Below, one piece after another: positions 80-7,119 of a stretch of 12,449 bases of DNA. The notes beneath the pieces were generated by a model, which was not told the origin of the DNA, did not search any database, and worked only from the letters and a program-made list of their open reading frames with translations. Numbering within the stretch: the first letter of the stretch is position 1; every line of letters begins with the position of its first letter. The position numbers and the translations under genes were made by a program. This DNA comes from a virus, in the UHGV virus genome UHGV-0116345, one strand, 5' to 3'.

Positions 80-703
80 TTATGCGACCTCGGAAGGAAG
101 TCCAATCATCTTATTCAAATCTTCTACCCGTAAAGCAGGAAGTGCTGTACTTGCTTTATCTGCTTCTTTTGGTAGCAACTCTTTGCTTTCAGGCCAAACT
201 TCAATAAGTCGCTTAACTGTTGTGACTGAGTTCAAAGCAGCCCATACATTTGATTCGATATCCTTTTTCTTGGCTTCAAGTTTTTGTTGCAATGCGCAGA
301 TTTCATCAAACCTTTTTGTTATTTCGTGTTCTGCGCTAAACATGCATTTATCTTTGGTCGGAGTAGGGAGCAATATATCTTCGCCGTTGCCGTCTTTCCC
401 ATATGAATACCAGCCAACCCTTCTGCCAGATACAGTCAGATAAATTGAAGTTGAACGGGCATCGCATGAGTAAAATGAACATCCCAGCTTTTCAAGTTCT
501 TCGCTTATAGCCATTAACTTGGATGATAACTGATCCACTTCCTCAGTTTTCTTTTTACCGCCAAACGCAACAACTCTGGCGTCAAGTGCAAGCTGGTTCT
601 TTAACTTTGTTACTTCTTCAAGCTCAGTGAAAACCCCAGATTTAATTAAAGCGTTACGAGCGATTTTCTCTTTCATTCTCGTAGTTAAGCGGATTGATGA
701 CAT
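80..703 (-). CDS. Hypothetical early-left (pL operon) protein, 207 aa, hydrophilic with predicted coiled-coil character; sits at the position lambda uses for ral/sieB-type accessory genes
   Basis: Long ORF in the track (80..763, TTG-initiated). I place the start at ATG 701-703, preceded by GAGAGGA with 6-nt spacing (MSSIRLTTRMKEKIARN...). Same strand and immediately downstream of the N-like gene. No family recognised. Confidence 0.6.
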   Translation of the reverse strand: MSSIRLTTRMKEKIARNALIKSGVFTELEEVTKLKNQLALDARVVAFGGKKKTEEVDQLSSKLMAISEELEKLGCSFYSCDARSTSIYLTVSGRRVGWYSYGKDGNGEDILLPTPTKDKCMFSAEHEITKRFDEICALQQKLEAKKKDIESNVWAALNSVTTVKRLIEVWPESKELLPKEADKASTALPALRVEDLNKMIGLPSEVA

Positions 704-764
704 ATTAATTCCTCTCAAATAAGTGGTTTGCTGCCTAATTTCATTTTCTGGCGACCAACACAAG

Positions 765-1136: not shown

Positions 1137-1181
1137 GGCTTTTCAGCCACGTAGTCGAGAGTCGACGTTGTTTAAAGAGCC
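1137..1181 (-). promoter_or_regulatory. nutL-like site: boxA (GGCTCTTTA), interbox hairpin (GTCGA-CTC-TCGAC), boxB (GGCTGAAAAGCC), read on the minus strand
   Basis: Minus-strand reading of 1137-1181 is GGCTCTTTAAACAACGTCGACTCTCGACTACGTGGCTGAAAAGCC. It is co-linear with the nutR-like site at 3817-3862 (shared GCTCTTT, AACAACG, TACGT, GCTGAAAAGC). The boxB loop GAAAA resembles lambda boxB. Confidence 0.6.
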
Positions 1182-1473: not shown

Positions 1474-2226
1474 TTATGCTGCAAGTCTCTTAACCCAAGT
1501 CTCTCTTTTGGAGAATGGTAGAACTTGGCTTGATTCATGGAAGAGTAAGGAGAGTTGTTGCATTTGATCACCAATTGCTTCGCTGTCTATAACAACAAAT
1601 CTGTTGTTATACTCCTCACTTGAAGCTTTAAGATCAATTAGTTTCCCAAGCAATGAGTAAGCACTATTCCAGCTTCCTCCGTGTTTCACGCTTGATGTAA
1701 AAACGTATTTAGGTATGTCGGTTTTTATTGTTACAGGGACGGTAATTTGATGTCCACTCAAGCCATATACGTTTTCACGAAGAGAAAGTGCGTCTCTAAG
1801 CTCTGTGTGATATAGATAATCAATAACCATACTTTCAAACTTTTCAGCTTGAACTGGCTGATACCAGTCTAACGACAAAGTTGATGCGAGTATACCAGCT
1901 CTAATTATGTTCGATGTAATCGCACCGACATCCTTTTCTGTTGCCCAAGCAATGATTTCTCCTCGAGCATTGAGTTCTGCGCCTTCTTTAAGCAGTAATT
2001 GTCGTATCTCATCAAGTCGTTTTTTGGTAAGCGAGATCCCTCTTGCCTCCATATTCATTAAGGCATCGCATCTGTCACTAACTAAATACCTACCATTGAC
2101 TTCACGGATAAAGGCACCGACATGCTCTCCATCATCACAGTAAGTGAATGGACTGATAATTCTCAAGGTCTTGCCTATTGGATGGCATTCGAAACCTAGT
2201 TGTGAGATCACTGTTGAGCACATCAT
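1474..2226 (-). CDS. Unknown protein, 250 aa; downstream gene of the two-gene cassette at the rexAB-equivalent locus (candidate phage-exclusion/defence component)
   Basis: ORF in track. Start ATG overlaps the stop of the upstream gene (ATGATG / TGA overlap at 2223-2226), indicating translational coupling. No transmembrane segments and no catalytic motif I can assign. No resemblance to RexA/RexB by recollection. Confidence 0.7.
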   Translation of the reverse strand: MMCSTVISQLGFECHPIGKTLRIISPFTYCDDGEHVGAFIREVNGRYLVSDRCDALMNMEARGISLTKKRLDEIRQLLLKEGAELNARGEIIAWATEKDVGAITSNIIRAGILASTLSLDWYQPVQAEKFESMVIDYLYHTELRDALSLRENVYGLSGHQITVPVTIKTDIPKYVFTSSVKHGGSWNSAYSLLGKLIDLKASSEEYNNRFVVIDSEAIGDQMQQLSLLFHESSQVLPFSKRETWVKRLAA

Positions 2227-2780
2227 ATTCCAAACCCCATTTGCCCCGACTCATCTTCAAGCGGTAAAGGTATTCTCCCAGAGTAAGTTATGTTCAGATG
2301 TTTACAGAAGTAATTCCAATACCCTACCAGGTCATCTGGGTTTATGTCATCTTCGATTGGAAACGCTATTCTATCACTATAGTATCCAGCTTCTTCATAG
2401 TATACATGGTAGTGAGCACCGTAAATGATATCTTGGTACTTCGGATGATCGACCTTGTAACTATTCGTGTGTTTGTCAAAGTGATAGGTATCTACCGCGA
2501 AAACCCTCTTGTTATGATAGAAAGCAATAATATTTATTTTAGGGTAAGAAATCGGGTCATCAGGTTCTGAATCCTGATCTGGTTTCCATTTCAGTTCAAA
2601 CTTTAGCCCTTGTATAGGTATACAATCCTCATCCAAGGGGATGATATGGGCTTGTAGCCACATATCAGAGCGACTTGGTTTCTGTTTCCATTTAACGCCA
2701 GAAAAGTTAACTATTTTTTTACAATAAAGTACTTTATCAACTTCTACTTGGCTTGGCTGATAATCATCTATTTTTGCCAA
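2223..2780 (-). CDS. Unknown protein, 185 aa, acidic and His/Tyr-rich; upstream gene of the two-gene cassette at the rexAB-equivalent locus
   Basis: ORF in track; the first in-frame initiator after the upstream stop is TTG at 2778-2780 (next ATG is 39 codons in), so the start is uncertain. Codon usage is atypical for enterobacteria (about ten ATA Ile codons and several AGA/AGG) and the interval is visibly AT-rich versus flanking phage genes. Function unknown. Confidence 0.65.
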   Translation of the reverse strand: MAKIDDYQPSQVEVDKVLYCKKIVNFSGVKWKQKPSRSDMWLQAHIIPLDEDCIPIQGLKFELKWKPDQDSEPDDPISYPKINIIAFYHNKRVFAVDTYHFDKHTNSYKVDHPKYQDIIYGAHYHVYYEEAGYYSDRIAFPIEDDINPDDLVGYWNYFCKHLNITYSGRIPLPLEDESGQMGFGI

Positions 2781-2797: not shown

Positions 2798-2828
2798 ATT
2801 GTAGATAAAAGTGGTTTCATCACCCAAA
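2798..2828 (-). promoter_or_regulatory. Candidate sigma70 promoter for the cassette in the cI-cassette junction (-35 TTGGGT, 18-nt spacer, -10 TACAAT on the minus strand)
   Basis: Hexamers read directly on the minus strand overlapping the cI stop. Not validated; the cassette may also simply be read through from PRM. Confidence 0.3.
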
Positions 2829-3479
2829 CGTCTCTTCAGGCCATTGGCTGGCGATAACTTTCCCCACAACGGAACAACTCTCATTGCATGGGATCATTGG
2901 GTATTGTGGGTTTAGTGGCTGTAGAAACACCTGACCGCTATCCCTGATCAGTTTCTTGAAGGTAAATTCATCACCACCAAGTCTGGCTATGCAGAAATCG
3001 CCGGGCTCAACAGCTTGCTCAGGGTCAACCAGAATTAACATCCCGTCAGGAAAGCTGGGTTTGGAACCTGTTGGTGCGGTCATTGAGTTACCTTCAACCT
3101 CAAGCCAGAATGCAGAGTCACTGGCTTTTTTGGTTGTGCTTACCAATCTCTCCGCATCGCCTTTGGTAAAGGTTCTGAGTTCTGGAGAGAACATCCCAGC
3201 CTGAACATGAGAAAAAACAGGGTACTCATATTGTTTTTTAACTGGGGCCGATGAGTATTCGCCAACAGGTGAAAATGTCCCGTCGTGGTTGAATGATATG
3301 TTATCAATACCAAGGTATTTAAACACCACACCAATATCACTAAGAGATGGATGACGAGATCCGCGCAACCAGTGTCCAATCCCACCCTGCGTCATACCTA
3401 GCTCTTCGGCTAACTTCTCTTGAGTTATGCCGAGCTCTTTCATTCTGGATCTAGCCAGTTCATACCATTTCATTTTCAT
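2820..3479 (-). CDS. cI: CI-type prophage repressor: novel N-terminal HTH domain fused to a lambda-cI-like C-terminal oligomerisation/autocleavage domain
   Basis: C-terminal ~135 aa ([29 protein letters not shown]...[12 protein letters not shown]) match lambda cI as I recall it, including the Ala-Gly autocleavage site within VQAGMF. The N-terminal ~85 aa are unrelated to lambda cI but HTH-like. Start is either ATG 3479 (MKMKW, possibly leaderless from PRM) or ATG 3473 (AAGGA 7 nt upstream). Confidence 0.9.
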
Positions 3480-3590
3480 GTCCTTATTATTACGCTCTGT
3501 ACTGGAACCATCCATGCACAATGTGTATTTTTACTTGTATTCGCAAAGTACATATTGTATTTTTTTATTCGTGTTTACTATGGAGGGCAT
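3480..3590. promoter_or_regulatory. OR region: divergent PRM / PR promoters and operator sites between cI and cro
   Basis: 110-bp AT-rich divergent intergenic region. Repeated TGTA/TACA-containing elements (CTTGTATTCGCAAAGTACATAT at 3534-3555; ATGTGTATTTTTAC; ATTGTATTTTTTTAT). Candidate PR -35/-10 pairs are TTGTAT / TATTTT or TTTACT / TATTGT. Operators do not resemble lambda's, consistent with the non-lambda cI N-terminus. Confidence 0.6.
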
Positions 3591-3806
3591 ATGAGCAACC
3601 TACGAAAATATCGAGAGTCACTGAATATCTCTCAAACAACACTTGCTAAGGCAGTTGGATGCACACAGGGAGCTATCGGACATTGGGAATCTGGTCGTCG
3701 CTTCCCAGACCTTAAAACATGCCGTGCTCTTGTTGCGTGCCTAAACAAGTTAGGCGCAAAAGTCAGTCTTGATGACGTGTTCCCGCCGGAACACAAAGCC
3801 GCTTAA
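3591..3806 (+). CDS. cro: Cro-like HTH (XRE-family) repressor, 71 aa
   Basis: ATG 3591 preceded by GGAGGG. Translation MSNLRKYRESLNISQTTLAKAVGCTQGAIGHWESGRRFPDLK... has a clear HTH. Divergent from cI across the operator region. The longer ORF in the track (3420..) is an upstream extension lacking an RBS. Confidence 0.85.
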   Translation: MSNLRKYRESLNISQTTLAKAVGCTQGAIGHWESGRRFPDLKTCRALVACLNKLGAKVSLDDVFPPEHKAA

Positions 3807-3816
3807 TAAGCGGATC

Positions 3817-3862
3817 CGCTCTTTGTAACAACGGACATTCGTCCTACGTCGCTGAAAAGCGA
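3817..3862 (+). promoter_or_regulatory. nutR-like site: boxA (CGCTCTTTG), interbox hairpin (GGAC-ATTC-GTCC), boxB (TCGCTGAAAAGCGA)
   Basis: Read directly. Co-linear with the nutL-like element; the interbox hairpins differ in sequence but both remain self-complementary. Located just downstream of cro, as nutR is in lambda. Confidence 0.6.
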
Positions 3863-3947: not shown

Positions 3948-4244
3948 ATGGAAAGAACAAGTTACAGCAAACTATCACAGCGCGACGTTGATCGCGCAGA
4001 AACAGATTTACTCATCAACCTGTCAGCGATTACCCAGCGCGGTCTGGCAAAGATGATTGGCTGTCATGAATCGAAGATAAGCAGAACGGACTGGAGATTT
4101 ATTGCTTCGGTCTTGTGTGCTTTCGGAATGGCATCAGACATCAGTCCGATTAGCAGGGCTTTTAAGTATGCGCTTGATGGACTCACCAATAAAAAACGCC
4201 CGGCGGCAACCGAGCGTTCTGAACAAATCCAGATGGAATTCTGA
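3948..4244 (+). CDS. cII: CII-like transcriptional activator, 98 aa
   Basis: C-terminus LTNKKRPAATERSEQIQMEF matches the lambda CII C-terminus as recalled. The N-terminal part is diverged but contains an HTH-like segment. Position between cro/nutR and O. Confidence 0.85.
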   Translation: MERTSYSKLSQRDVDRAETDLLINLSAITQRGLAKMIGCHESKISRTDWRFIASVLCAFGMASDISPISRAFKYALDGLTNKKRPAATERSEQIQMEF

Positions 4245-5134: not shown

Positions 5135-5242
5135 ATGAAATCAAAAATCAAATCGTTACTGGTCGCTGGTTATAACCACGGCTGGTTAAGTATTTCGTTT
5201 GTCGATTTCTGGTTTAAAAATCTCAATCTGAGGGAATCATGA
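5135..5242 (+). CDS. Possible micro-ORF (35 aa, MKSKIKSLLVAGYNHGWLSISFVDFWFKNLNLRES) bridging O and the primase-helicase
   Basis: ATG 5135 is 3 nt after the O stop, with AGGTGA 5 nt upstream; its stop TGA (5240-5242) overlaps the ATG of the next gene. Below the ORF-track length cut-off; coding status unproven. Confidence 0.2.
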   Translation: MKSKIKSLLVAGYNHGWLSISFVDFWFKNLNLRES

Positions 5243-7119
5243 CTCCAAGTGAACTTAGCTACCTGCTTTGGGCGCAGGTTGACAGGGTGGCTCCACACCT
5301 GTTGCCAAACGGCAAGAAAGAGGGGCATGAGTGGGTTGCCGGTAACGTCAACGGTGACAAGGGAAACAGCCTTAAGGTCAACCTTAGCGGCAAGAAAAAA
5401 TGGGCTGATTTCGCTGAGGGAGACGGCGGTGACATGCTTGATTTGTGGATGGCATGTCGTGGAATTAACCTGCATCAGGCTATGCAGGAAGCGAAAGCAT
5501 TTCTCGGTATCAAGGATGACGATCACCATTTCGATGCCAGACGTGAGAAGAAATTCTCCAGACCTGATCGCAAGAAAATCGCCCGCTACGTTACCAGAAC
5601 AGAATCCCATCTTGAGTACCTGCAATCGCGTGGCATATCGCCAGAAATCGTAAAGCGCTACGAGGTTGTCAGCGGCAAGGTGTGGAATGGAGAGCGGGAA
5701 CTGGATGCTCTGGTGATTCCGTACAAACGCGATGGTGAGTTGTTGCAGGTCAAGCGAATCAGCACTGAGCGCCCGGACGGGAAGAAAGTCATTATGGCAG
5801 AAGGTGATTGCGAACCTTGCCTGTTCGGATGGCAGGCTCTGGACGCTGGCGTGAGGGCGGTTGTGCTTTGCGAAGGCGAAATTGATTGTATGAGCTATGC
5901 GCAATACGGCATCTCGGCGTTATCCGTGCCGTTTGGTGGCGGGAAAGGCGCTAAGCAACAGTGGATTGAGTTTGAGTATCACAACCTCGACAGGTTTGAG
6001 GAAATATTCATCTCGATGGACGTTGATGATGTTGGTCGTGAAGCCGCAAGGGAAATCGCAAGCCGACTCGGTGAACATCGTTGCCGTCTTGTTACTCTGC
6101 CGTACAAAGACATCAACGAATGCCTGATGAACGGTGTTACCGAGGATGAAATCTGGCAGTACATCGGCACGGCATCCTACTTCGATCCTGAAGAACTCTA
6201 CAGCGCGCGAGAGTTTTACCAGGACACTATCAACGCTTTCTACGGCAAGCAGCAGTATCTGTTTAATCCACCGTGGGAATCTCTGGCAGATAAATTCCAG
6301 TTCCGTGAGGCAGAGTTGACGCTGGTCAATGGGGTGAACGGTCACGGAAAAACGGAGGTTGTCGGGCATATGGCACTTGAGGCAATGCGTCAGGGTGTGA
6401 AGACGTGCATCGCGTCACTTGAGCTGAAGCCTGGTATTCTCCTTAAGCGCCTTACCCGTCAGGCGACGTGCTGCAAGATGCCGCCAGTGCTGGAAATTGA
6501 CTCTGCATTTAAATTTTATGACGAAAGACTTTGGGTGTTTGGCCTGACCGGAACGGCGAAAGCCGACAGGCTGATCGAAATATTCGACTACGCTCGCCGC
6601 CGATACGGGATCCAGTTATTCATCATCGACAGCCTGATGAAATGTGGCATAGGCGACGATGACTATAACGGGCAGAAGGCGTTTGTTGACTCGATTTGCG
6701 ACTTCAAAAACAAAACAAACTCCCACGTCATTCTCGTTACTCACTCGCGAAAAGGAGACAGCGAAGAAAAACCAACCGGGAAAATGGACGTAAAAGGCTC
6801 TGGAGCGATAACAGACCTGACAGACAACCTTTTCATCATCTGGCGTAACAAGGCTCGCGAGAGAGCGTTACAGAGAGTTCAGAGTGGTGAAAAGATGTCA
6901 GAGAAGGACGAACAGCTACTGGCGTCTCCTGCATCTGTTTTGATGCTTGAAAAACAACGTAACGGCGAAGGTTGGGAAGGTGGTGTCCCGTTGTTCCTTG
7001 ACGAGCAATCGCACCAGTTCCTGCAACTTGAATCAGGATCGCCATATAGCTACATCGCCAATATGCCGAAATCGGAATATGACGAGGCGTGGCGACAGGA
7101 AAACGTGACGGAGTATTAA
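5239..7119 (+). CDS. Bifunctional DNA primase / replicative helicase (TOPRIM primase domain + DnaB/RecA-like ATPase with Walker A GVNGHGKT and Walker B FIIDS), 626 aa
   Basis: ATG 5239 with GAGGGA RBS. TOPRIM-like acidic motifs (VVLCEGEIDCMSYAQ ... ISMDVDDVGREAA). Walker A at LVNGVNGHGKTEV and Walker B at LFIIDSLMK in the C-terminal half. Occupies the position of lambda P. Confidence 0.85.
   Translation: MTPSELSYLLWAQVDRVAPHLLPNGKKEGHEWVAGNVNGDKGNSLKVNLSGKKKWADFAEGDGGDMLDLWMACRGINLHQAMQEAKAFLGIKDDDHHFDARREKKFSRPDRKKIARYVTRTESHLEYLQSRGISPEIVKRYEVVSGKVWNGERELDALVIPYKRDGELLQVKRISTERPDGKKVIMAEGDCEPCLFGWQALDAGVRAVVLCEGEIDCMSYAQYGISALSVPFGGGKGAKQQWIEFEYHNLDRFEEIFISMDVDDVGREAAREIASRLGEHRCRLVTLPYKDINECLMNGVTEDEIWQYIGTASYFDPEELYSAREFYQDTINAFYGKQQYLFNPPWESLADKFQFREAELTLVNGVNGHGKTEVVGHMALEAMRQGVKTCIASLELKPGILLKRLTRQATCCKMPPVLEIDSAFKFYDERLWVFGLTGTAKADRLIEIFDYARRRYGIQLFIIDSLMKCGIGDDDYNGQKAFVDSICDFKNKTNSHVILVTHSRKGDSEEKPTGKMDVKGSGAITDLTDNLFIIWRNKARERALQRVQSGEKMSEKDEQLLASPASVLMLEKQRNGEGWEGGVPLFLDEQSHQFLQLESGSPYSYIANMPKSEYDEAWRQENVTEY

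Follow-up and report, generated by a model that had tools for sequence, protein, structure and literature searches.

Predicted nutL and nutR sites of a lambdoid coliphage carry an H-19B-type RNA hairpin between boxA and boxB

The early region and its two nut sites

The window, by which we mean the whole 12.4-kb stretch of DNA that was analysed (12,449 nt), represents the early control region of a lambdoid coliphage, in which the genes run N, two accessory genes, cI, cro, cII, O, primase-helicase and nin-region genes. Its segment 765-4300 is 99.8% identical to phages ev207, ev017 and PhiR57_1. Within this region, cI lies at 2820-3515, cro at 3591-3806 on the plus strand and cII at 3948-4244. 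The two genes that occupy the lambda rexAB position between N and cI (1474-2780, minus strand) encode a 250-aa DUF1828 protein and a 185-aa protein with a weak DUF6978 match, and the pair matches the PADLOC candidate defence system PDC-M24 (PDC-M24B, E = 4.7e-10; PDC-M24A, E = 4.8e-4); a strong terminator-like hairpin is found 3' of it at 1449-1470 on the minus strand. An oop-like intrinsic terminator, consisting of a 12-bp stem and then a T run, is located antisense in the cII 3' end (4193-4220, minus strand), a 626-aa Toprim + DnaB_C primase-helicase fusion (5239-7119, plus strand) stands in place of lambda P, and a gene for an Nmad5-domain protein (80-763, minus strand) lies downstream of N.

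The N antiterminator gene maps to 765-1037 on the minus strand and encodes a 90-aa protein with the ARM MSRKTEFKGTAASRRRARRANLQS. The product matches Pfam PF25694 (N_peptide) at E = 1.5e-32, is 98.9% identical to its counterparts in VT2-Sakai, Stx2-1717 and numerous further Stx phages, and shares ~41% identity with H-19B/933W N in tblastn. In the VT2-Sakai and Stx1 phage records, N is given as a 114-aa ORF from the ATG at 1109, 27 nt after nutL. On the other hand, the N homologues of many phages start with M[ST]R[RK]T, equivalent to the ATG at 1037, which has the Shine-Dalgarno sequence GGAGGAA upstream. The 90-aa form is probably the real one. The identification of the gene as N also draws on the alignment with H-19B N and on the PhiR57_1 annotation.

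Two elements with the order boxA, hairpin, boxB accompany these genes, one in the pL leader ~100 nt upstream of the N start and the other beginning 11 nt past the cro stop codon. Read on the minus strand from 1181 to 1136, the first is GGCTCTTTA-AACAAC-GTCGA-CTC-TCGAC-TACG-T-GGCT-GAAA-AGCC-A; the second, on the plus strand at 3817-3862, reads CGCTCTTTG-TAACAAC-GGAC-ATTC-GTCC-TACG-T-CGCT-GAAA-AGCG-A. In the pL leader, boxA (GGCUCUUUA, 1173-1181), which is of the rrn-consensus type (cf. UGCUCUUUA; consensus from PMC2724277), is followed by a single-stranded 5' flank AACAAC (1167-1172) whose AAY end is invariant in the family alignment described below, by a spacer hairpin (1154-1166) that pairs GUCGA (1166-1162) with UCGAC (1158-1154) around the loop CUC (1161-1159), by the linker UACG (1150-1153), and by boxB (1136-1149), a 5-bp UGGCU/AGCCA stem with a GAAA tetraloop (1144-1141). 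The counterpart after cro comprises boxA (CGCUCUUUG, 3817-3825), the flank UAACAAC (3826-3832), a spacer hairpin (3833-3844) in which GGAC (3833-3836) pairs with GUCC (3841-3844) across the loop AUUC, the linker UACG (3845-3848), and boxB (3849-3862), with a UCGCU/AGCGA stem and the tetraloop GAAA at 3854-3857. The linker is present in every family site seen, whether the site was chosen by boxB or by N homology.

The sequence-only reading of this DNA had described both three-part sequences, and both are found where it placed them; its partition of them needed some adjustment. One G of nutL had been counted twice, as the end of AACAACG and again as the start of GTCGAC, the actual sequence being AACAACGTCGAC. 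It had also likened boxB to that of lambda and had drawn it as a 4-bp stem with a GAAAA loop; because the last base assigned to the linker pairs with the base after boxB, the site is better described as a 5-bp stem with a GAAA tetraloop preceded by the linker UACG. Indeed, this outermost boxB pair covaries in relatives (T-A, A-T, G-C and C-G all occur), as does the next pair inwards (CG in 21 sites, GC in 12 and AU in 2). The boxA-boxB distance, said to lie far above that of lambda at ~23-27 nt, is exactly 23 nt at both sites, versus 9 nt at nutR and 8 nt at nutL of lambda (read from NC_001416).

The pattern GCTCTTT-N12-40-GCTGAAAAGC has two matches in the window as against 0.00 in 200 shuffles, and chance is therefore excluded as the source of these elements. 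They combine the position and strand of lambdoid nut sites with a boxA like CGCUCUU(U)A (consensus in PMC2724277), a covarying GNRA-like boxB and an ARM-type N gene nearby. Rfam covariance models yielded nothing covering 1136-1181 or 3817-3862 at E <= 1. As proposed from the letters alone, location in the pL leader upstream of N and directly after cro, together with the Pfam match of N, identifies the elements as the predicted antitermination sites, nutL and nutR, of this lambda-like coliphage. A further dyad lies next to nutR, within 3799-3819 of the plus strand: a 6-bp hairpin (CCGCUU-AAU-AAGCGG) covers the stop codons of cro and comes to within 3 nt of the nutR boxA, and the palindrome GCGGAUCCGC (3810-3819) overlaps the first boxA bases; both are specific to the cro allele of the window and absent in H-19B.

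Covariation of the spacer hairpin across related phages

IMG/VR was scanned with a pattern that fixed boxA and boxB only and left the spacer free, and further loci were gathered via N homologues; a scan of genome contigs returned 4 loci only. Every bona fide lambdoid match from the IMG/VR scan and the N-homologue loci has a hairpin between an AAY motif and TACG. One locus with boxA, hairpin, boxB and a different linker (L025) was discarded as a chance match within a Mu-like ner gene. We aligned 35 distinct nut sites from phages of E. coli, Salmonella and Enterobacter by padding with N, anchoring the 5' arm on AAY and the 3' arm on TACG, a procedure in which pairing played no part and which replaced raw MAFFT alignments that had misplaced the stem and loop registers. 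The 35 rows were chosen for the TACG linker, and the invariance of the linker was judged from sites found by boxB only or by N homology, where it also holds.

Among these 35 sites, 98.4% of the stem cells are paired, compared with 72.4 ± 1.9% when partners were shuffled (none of 500 shuffles reached the observed value), and sliding the 3' partner by 1-3 columns leaves at most 46% of the cells paired. The spacer hairpin scores 0.54 for covariation versus 0.11, and in five of its six pairs both partners vary. The stems include such unrelated types as GGAC/GUCC, GGCC/GGCC, GGGC/GUCC, GUCGA/UCGAC, GGUGA/UCACC, GGUGAA/UUUACC, GAAGAU/AUCUUC and GAUUCG(A)/UGAAUC. G·U wobbles occupy seven stem cells, whereas their mirror image A·C occurs in none, which indicates selection on the transcript strand only. 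RNAalifold, run on the relatives without an input structure, recovered no pairs other than those of the spacer hairpin and the inner four of boxB. Within the window, the nutL and nutR hairpins differ at stem pairs 2-4 and keep pairing in both, and ViennaRNA folds the hairpin at each isolated site (P = 0.66 for nutL and 0.99 for nutR). The compensatory change between the two sites that had been noted from the window alone is thus real, folding of both transcripts bears out the hairpin, and comparison with related phages extends the covariation to the family. Collectively, the covariation and the strand-specific wobbles identify the interbox hairpin as a selected RNA structure that has been maintained in evolution, as judged from these alignments.

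What is maintained is pairing rather than sequence. Loops are diverse and 3-6 nt long (CUC, ACAC, AUUC, AUGAA, CGGA, UGGAU, AAUA, AAGCAA and others), stems of 4-6 bp are free in sequence, and only the G-C closing pair and the AAY and UACG flanks are constant. This module of AAY, G-C-closed hairpin and UACG is kept in Salmonella P22-like phages and one Enterobacter phage whose N proteins are ~38% identical, at sites with no recognisable boxA.

Folding also returned a closed form that wraps the spacer hairpin inside a helix of boxA (GGCU.UUUA) with the boxB 3' half (UGAA.AGCC). For isolated nutL, this form is the minimum free energy structure (-14.3 kcal/mol versus -11.4 kcal/mol for the two-hairpin form), with P(boxB) at 0.006; for isolated nutR, closed and open forms are about equal. 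Blocking boxA in silico, as NusB/E would, gives the open two-hairpin fold at both sites, and the closed form is absent in lambda. The closed helix shows no covariation (its outer pair is possible in 12 of 21 sites versus 8.4 expected), does not appear in the RNAalifold consensus of the 35 relatives, is weaker in native context and is impossible at H-19B nutL, where boxA is unrecognisable. It was thus rejected as a functional fold, and we see it as a by-product that arises from two motifs under constraint.

What the hairpin may contribute

The reading we favour, and hold to be probable, is that these are H-19B-family nut sites in which a sequence-independent hairpin sequesters surplus spacer, and not a sequence-specific protein site. 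The pL and pR transcripts would each carry boxA, a self-contained hairpin, the linker UACG and a boxB of 5 bp capped by GAAA, a GNRA tetraloop; boxB would be bound by the N protein of the phage (gene 765-1037) through its arginine-rich N-terminus. By folding on itself, the hairpin would sequester 12-16 surplus spacer nucleotides and leave ~10 single-stranded ones between boxA and boxB, namely the AAY-ending flank and UACG, held side by side at the base of the G-C-closed stem. The effective spacing would thereby fall within the 8-17 nt found at nut sites that lack a hairpin and have their spacer engaged by NusA and N. The measured lengths are consistent with this arrangement. The hairpin insert spans 12-16 nt and flank plus UACG stay steady at 8-11 nt with a mode of 10, while hairpin-less spacers measure 8-9 nt in lambda, ~12 nt at the P22-like E. 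albertii site, 12-14 nt in the phi21 type and 15-17 nt in two further E. albertii loci (L294/L295). We infer that sequestration and geometry are what selection maintains.

Genetic work on H-19B attributed to Neely and Friedman in 2000, whose title reportedly names alternative structures of the NUT RNA and a lowered need for host factors, is said to have described dyad symmetries in the spacer, with changes in one arm inactivating the site and compensatory changes restoring it. Deletion of the whole dyad reportedly had little effect. Sequestration fits this genetics and is most likely the simplest reading. There is, however, a counterpoint: every member of the N clade examined keeps the hairpin, including the Salmonella and Enterobacter phages with N only ~38% identical, and since none of these has lost it, there is a hint of a positive function beyond sequestration. 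Moreover, as other N families tolerate a single-stranded spacer of 15-17 nt, length alone is a weak constraint. Retention across the clade suggests some positive role, for instance in offering a shape or platform to NusA or N, or in modulating Rho loading.

The sequence-only reading had raised the possibility that the hairpin is a second protein-binding element. A version of this idea, in which the central LHRPTPSRV segment of N or NusA recognises the shape of a hairpin that is obligatory in the antitermination complex, strikes us as doubtful. In its favour, even sites whose boxA cannot be recognised, namely H-19B nutL and Salmonella g341c, retain the hairpin with its invariant G-C closing pair and both flanks (AAY and UACG), the N proteins that accompany these sites all share the ARM and an HRPT.S[RK] module with C-termini that can differ, and N with NusA/NusG protects spacer G residues of H-19B nutR. 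However, loop (3-6 nt) and stem (4-6 bp) vary freely in length and sequence, and the reportedly mild effect of deleting the H-19B dyad is hard to reconcile with an obligatory element. The sole natural recombinant able to separate the ARM from the central module (L293) has no recognisable boxB, and NusA KH domains bind extended single strands (PMC2724277).

A related reading gives the invariant flanks the leading part. AAY, the G:C-closed clamp hairpin and UACG may form a composite recognition platform that replaces boxA-NusB/NusE in this N clade, the hairpin holding both flanks beside boxB for the HRPT.S[RK] segment of N and/or the KH domains of NusA. We give this only an outside chance; if true, it would explain both the presence of the module at boxA-less sites and the smaller host-factor need of H-19B N, which is active in vitro with NusA and NusG only.

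The hairpin might instead act as an insulator against misfolding, a reading we consider unlikely: with its nucleotides tied up, the spacer could not pair with boxB or with RNA farther downstream and thereby keep N from binding. At H-19B nutR, ViennaRNA does behave as this proposal predicts: P(boxB) is 0.95 in the wild type, drops to 0.45 once the 5' arm is disrupted, and reaches 0.95 again in the compensatory mutant and 0.98 upon deletion. When the 5' arm is disrupted, the released 3' arm and loop base-pair instead with the boxB 3' half and with nucleotides immediately downstream of it. These values match the arm-mutant genetics as reported, but those of the window sites and of the 35-site family do not. 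Window nutR keeps P(boxB) at 0.88-0.98 in every variant, boxB of window nutL is poorly formed with or without the hairpin, and the 35-site means in native context are indistinguishable among variants (wild type 0.735, hairpin deleted 0.747, arm mutants 0.757 and 0.734, shuffles 0.693). A general role of the hairpin in protecting boxB was accordingly rejected, as equilibrium folding of the 35 sites does not support it.

Still less probable, in our view, is a role of the hairpin in adjusting Rho loading or RNA decay in the nut/rut region, either by hiding C-rich single strand from Rho or by blocking nucleases. Rho leaves a footprint of ~22 nt on the H-19B nutR spacer, where it competes or co-occupies with NusA, and rutA and rutB are annotated flanking lambda nutR; this proposal nevertheless leaves unexplained the same module at nutL and the invariant flanks. 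Finally, that the dyad acts in DNA, as a protein operator or recombination site, or is a chance palindrome is hardly credible: GTCGAC in nutL is a perfect DNA palindrome and a weak terminator-like call falls on the opposite strand, but the seven G·U and zero A·C cells confine pairing to the transcribed strand, the arms are unconserved in sequence while their register between boxA and boxB is fixed and always on the sense strand, and zero chance matches are expected for the boxA-spacer-boxB pattern. Sequestration of surplus spacer by a hairpin of free sequence stays our preferred account.

Two N/boxB classes and the relation to known systems

Across the collected loci, the ARM of N goes with the loop of boxB. 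N proteins with RRR[E/A]RR..LQ always occur with a GAAA tetraloop (117 loci with 14 distinct ARM sequences, plus one RRRDRR variant), and those with RRRERLK always with a GACAA pentaloop (80 loci, H-19B among them). The association of ARM class with loop type is perfect over 198 loci, and the two cognate sites of one genome share their loop type in all 183 loci concerned, with none mixed. The spacer module and the flanking sequence are otherwise shared by the two classes, which thus look like a natural N-boxB specificity switch through a one-base loop indel, as far as sequence comparison can tell. By the same comparison, the window is assigned to the second specificity class, with a GAAA loop and a consensus boxA, within the H-19B-type nut family. 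Two classes on one scaffold offer clean material for studying how N-boxB specificity evolves.

Two further loci are of note. At L094 (1514-1789), three nut-like sites stand in tandem within ~280 nt of one viral contig and bring both loop classes side by side: a hairpin with TACGC and a GAAA boxB, a GACAA boxB without hairpin or linker, and an H-19B-nutL-like hairpin with TACGG and a GACAA boxB; no N ORF was present downstream within the stretch examined. The recombinant mentioned above (L293; Logan contig SRR21141593_713, N protein P0057) joins a P22-type ARM to H-19B central and C-terminal regions, and a boxB of either class was not found in this contig. Its cro-cII and post-cI leaders (787-907 and 1977-2310) have in common a GC-rich motif (CGAACGGC.C.G ... 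UCGGG), perhaps an antitermination RNA of another kind.

With lambda, the window shares sites after pL and after cro, made of boxA, a spacer and a boxB of 5 bp whose GNRA-like loop is rich in purines; in lambda, boxB is bound by the ARM of N and Nus factors engage boxA and the spacer (PMC2724277, PMC3177189). The lambda spacer is, however, 8-9 nt long, free of structure and marked by a conserved AUU on which NusA binding depends, whereas that of the window has 23 nt, contains a hairpin and lacks a conserved AUU. The lambda boxB loop is a pentaloop (GAAAA/GAAGA) instead of GAAA, and lambda boxB folds in isolation at P = 0.95-0.97, while the weaker boxB of the window competes with the boxA:boxB-3' helix. 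Sites of the P22 and phi21 types in E. albertii (L205, L296, L294/295) have in common with the window the N C-terminal module CLPNVALYAAGYRKSKQLTAR, boxA and the genomic position, but differ in their ARMs and boxB hairpins, and their spacers are single-stranded over ~12-17 nt, with no hairpin and no UACG. As for the E. coli rrn antiterminator, in which AACAA follows boxA, the window boxA and its following bases (GCUCUUUAAACAA) are close to the rrn boxA consensus UGCUCUUUA. The order of elements there is nonetheless reversed (boxB-boxA-boxC), N protein has no part in it, and boxB is dispensable (PMC8632103). Nut sites of another kind are treated in PMC11893012.

The closest known system is the Shiga-toxin phage H-19B, for which the same nut architecture has already been described, reportedly by Neely and Friedman in 1998 and 2000, so that any novelty implied by the sequence-only reading does not stand: the same spacer hairpin occurs there, and at nutR it is identical in sequence. 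The H-19B nutR, also used by the Sen laboratory, where two hairpins are reported in it (PMC3526286), reads CGCUAUUUUCACAAU-GGACAUUCGUCC-UACGU-CGCUGACAAAGCG in AF034975, with the same order of boxA region, spacer hairpin, UACG and boxB. Its hairpin and linker (GGACATTCGTCCTACGT) are identical to those of the window over 17 nt, and the entire nutR-tR1-cII leader is homologous. At nutL, H-19B has the hairpin GAUUCG-AAUA-UGAAUC, again followed by UACG, where the window has the stem GUCGA/UCGAC. The hairpin dyad thus lies in the spacer of both nutL and nutR, and homology extends over the nut regions and N. The N proteins have the same arginine-rich start and the same EAISS..LHRPT.SR segment, are 59% identical over aligned columns and identical in the last 21 aa, and residues R3, R15 and R18, which are mutationally essential in H-19B N, are conserved in window N.

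The two phages differ in the boxB loop, which in H-19B is a GACAA pentaloop and in the window a GAAA tetraloop with an ARM of the other class. The P22-like combination of a GACAA loop with an RSRRRERLK ARM is indeed not present in the window, which has GAAA and SRRRARRANLQ. They differ likewise in boxA, which is CGCUAUUUU at H-19B nutR and not recognisable at H-19B nutL, as opposed to the rrn-consensus GCUCUUUA in the window, and in the length of N (127 aa versus 90 aa in the window, via internal deletions). H-19B-type sites reportedly manage without boxA and without NusB/S10; as the window has a boxA of the consensus type, its dependence on NusB/NusE may be different.

These results reveal no new mechanism and their importance is modest. 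Nut sites are mostly unannotated in the public records of these phages, and the present assignments can be used to annotate early regulation in Stx phages. Together, the comparisons indicate that the "spacer dyad" of H-19B is not peculiar to one phage, but is, among the parts of the nut sites, the one best conserved throughout an entire N clade that includes Stx-converting phages such as VT2-Sakai as well as related Salmonella and Enterobacter phages.
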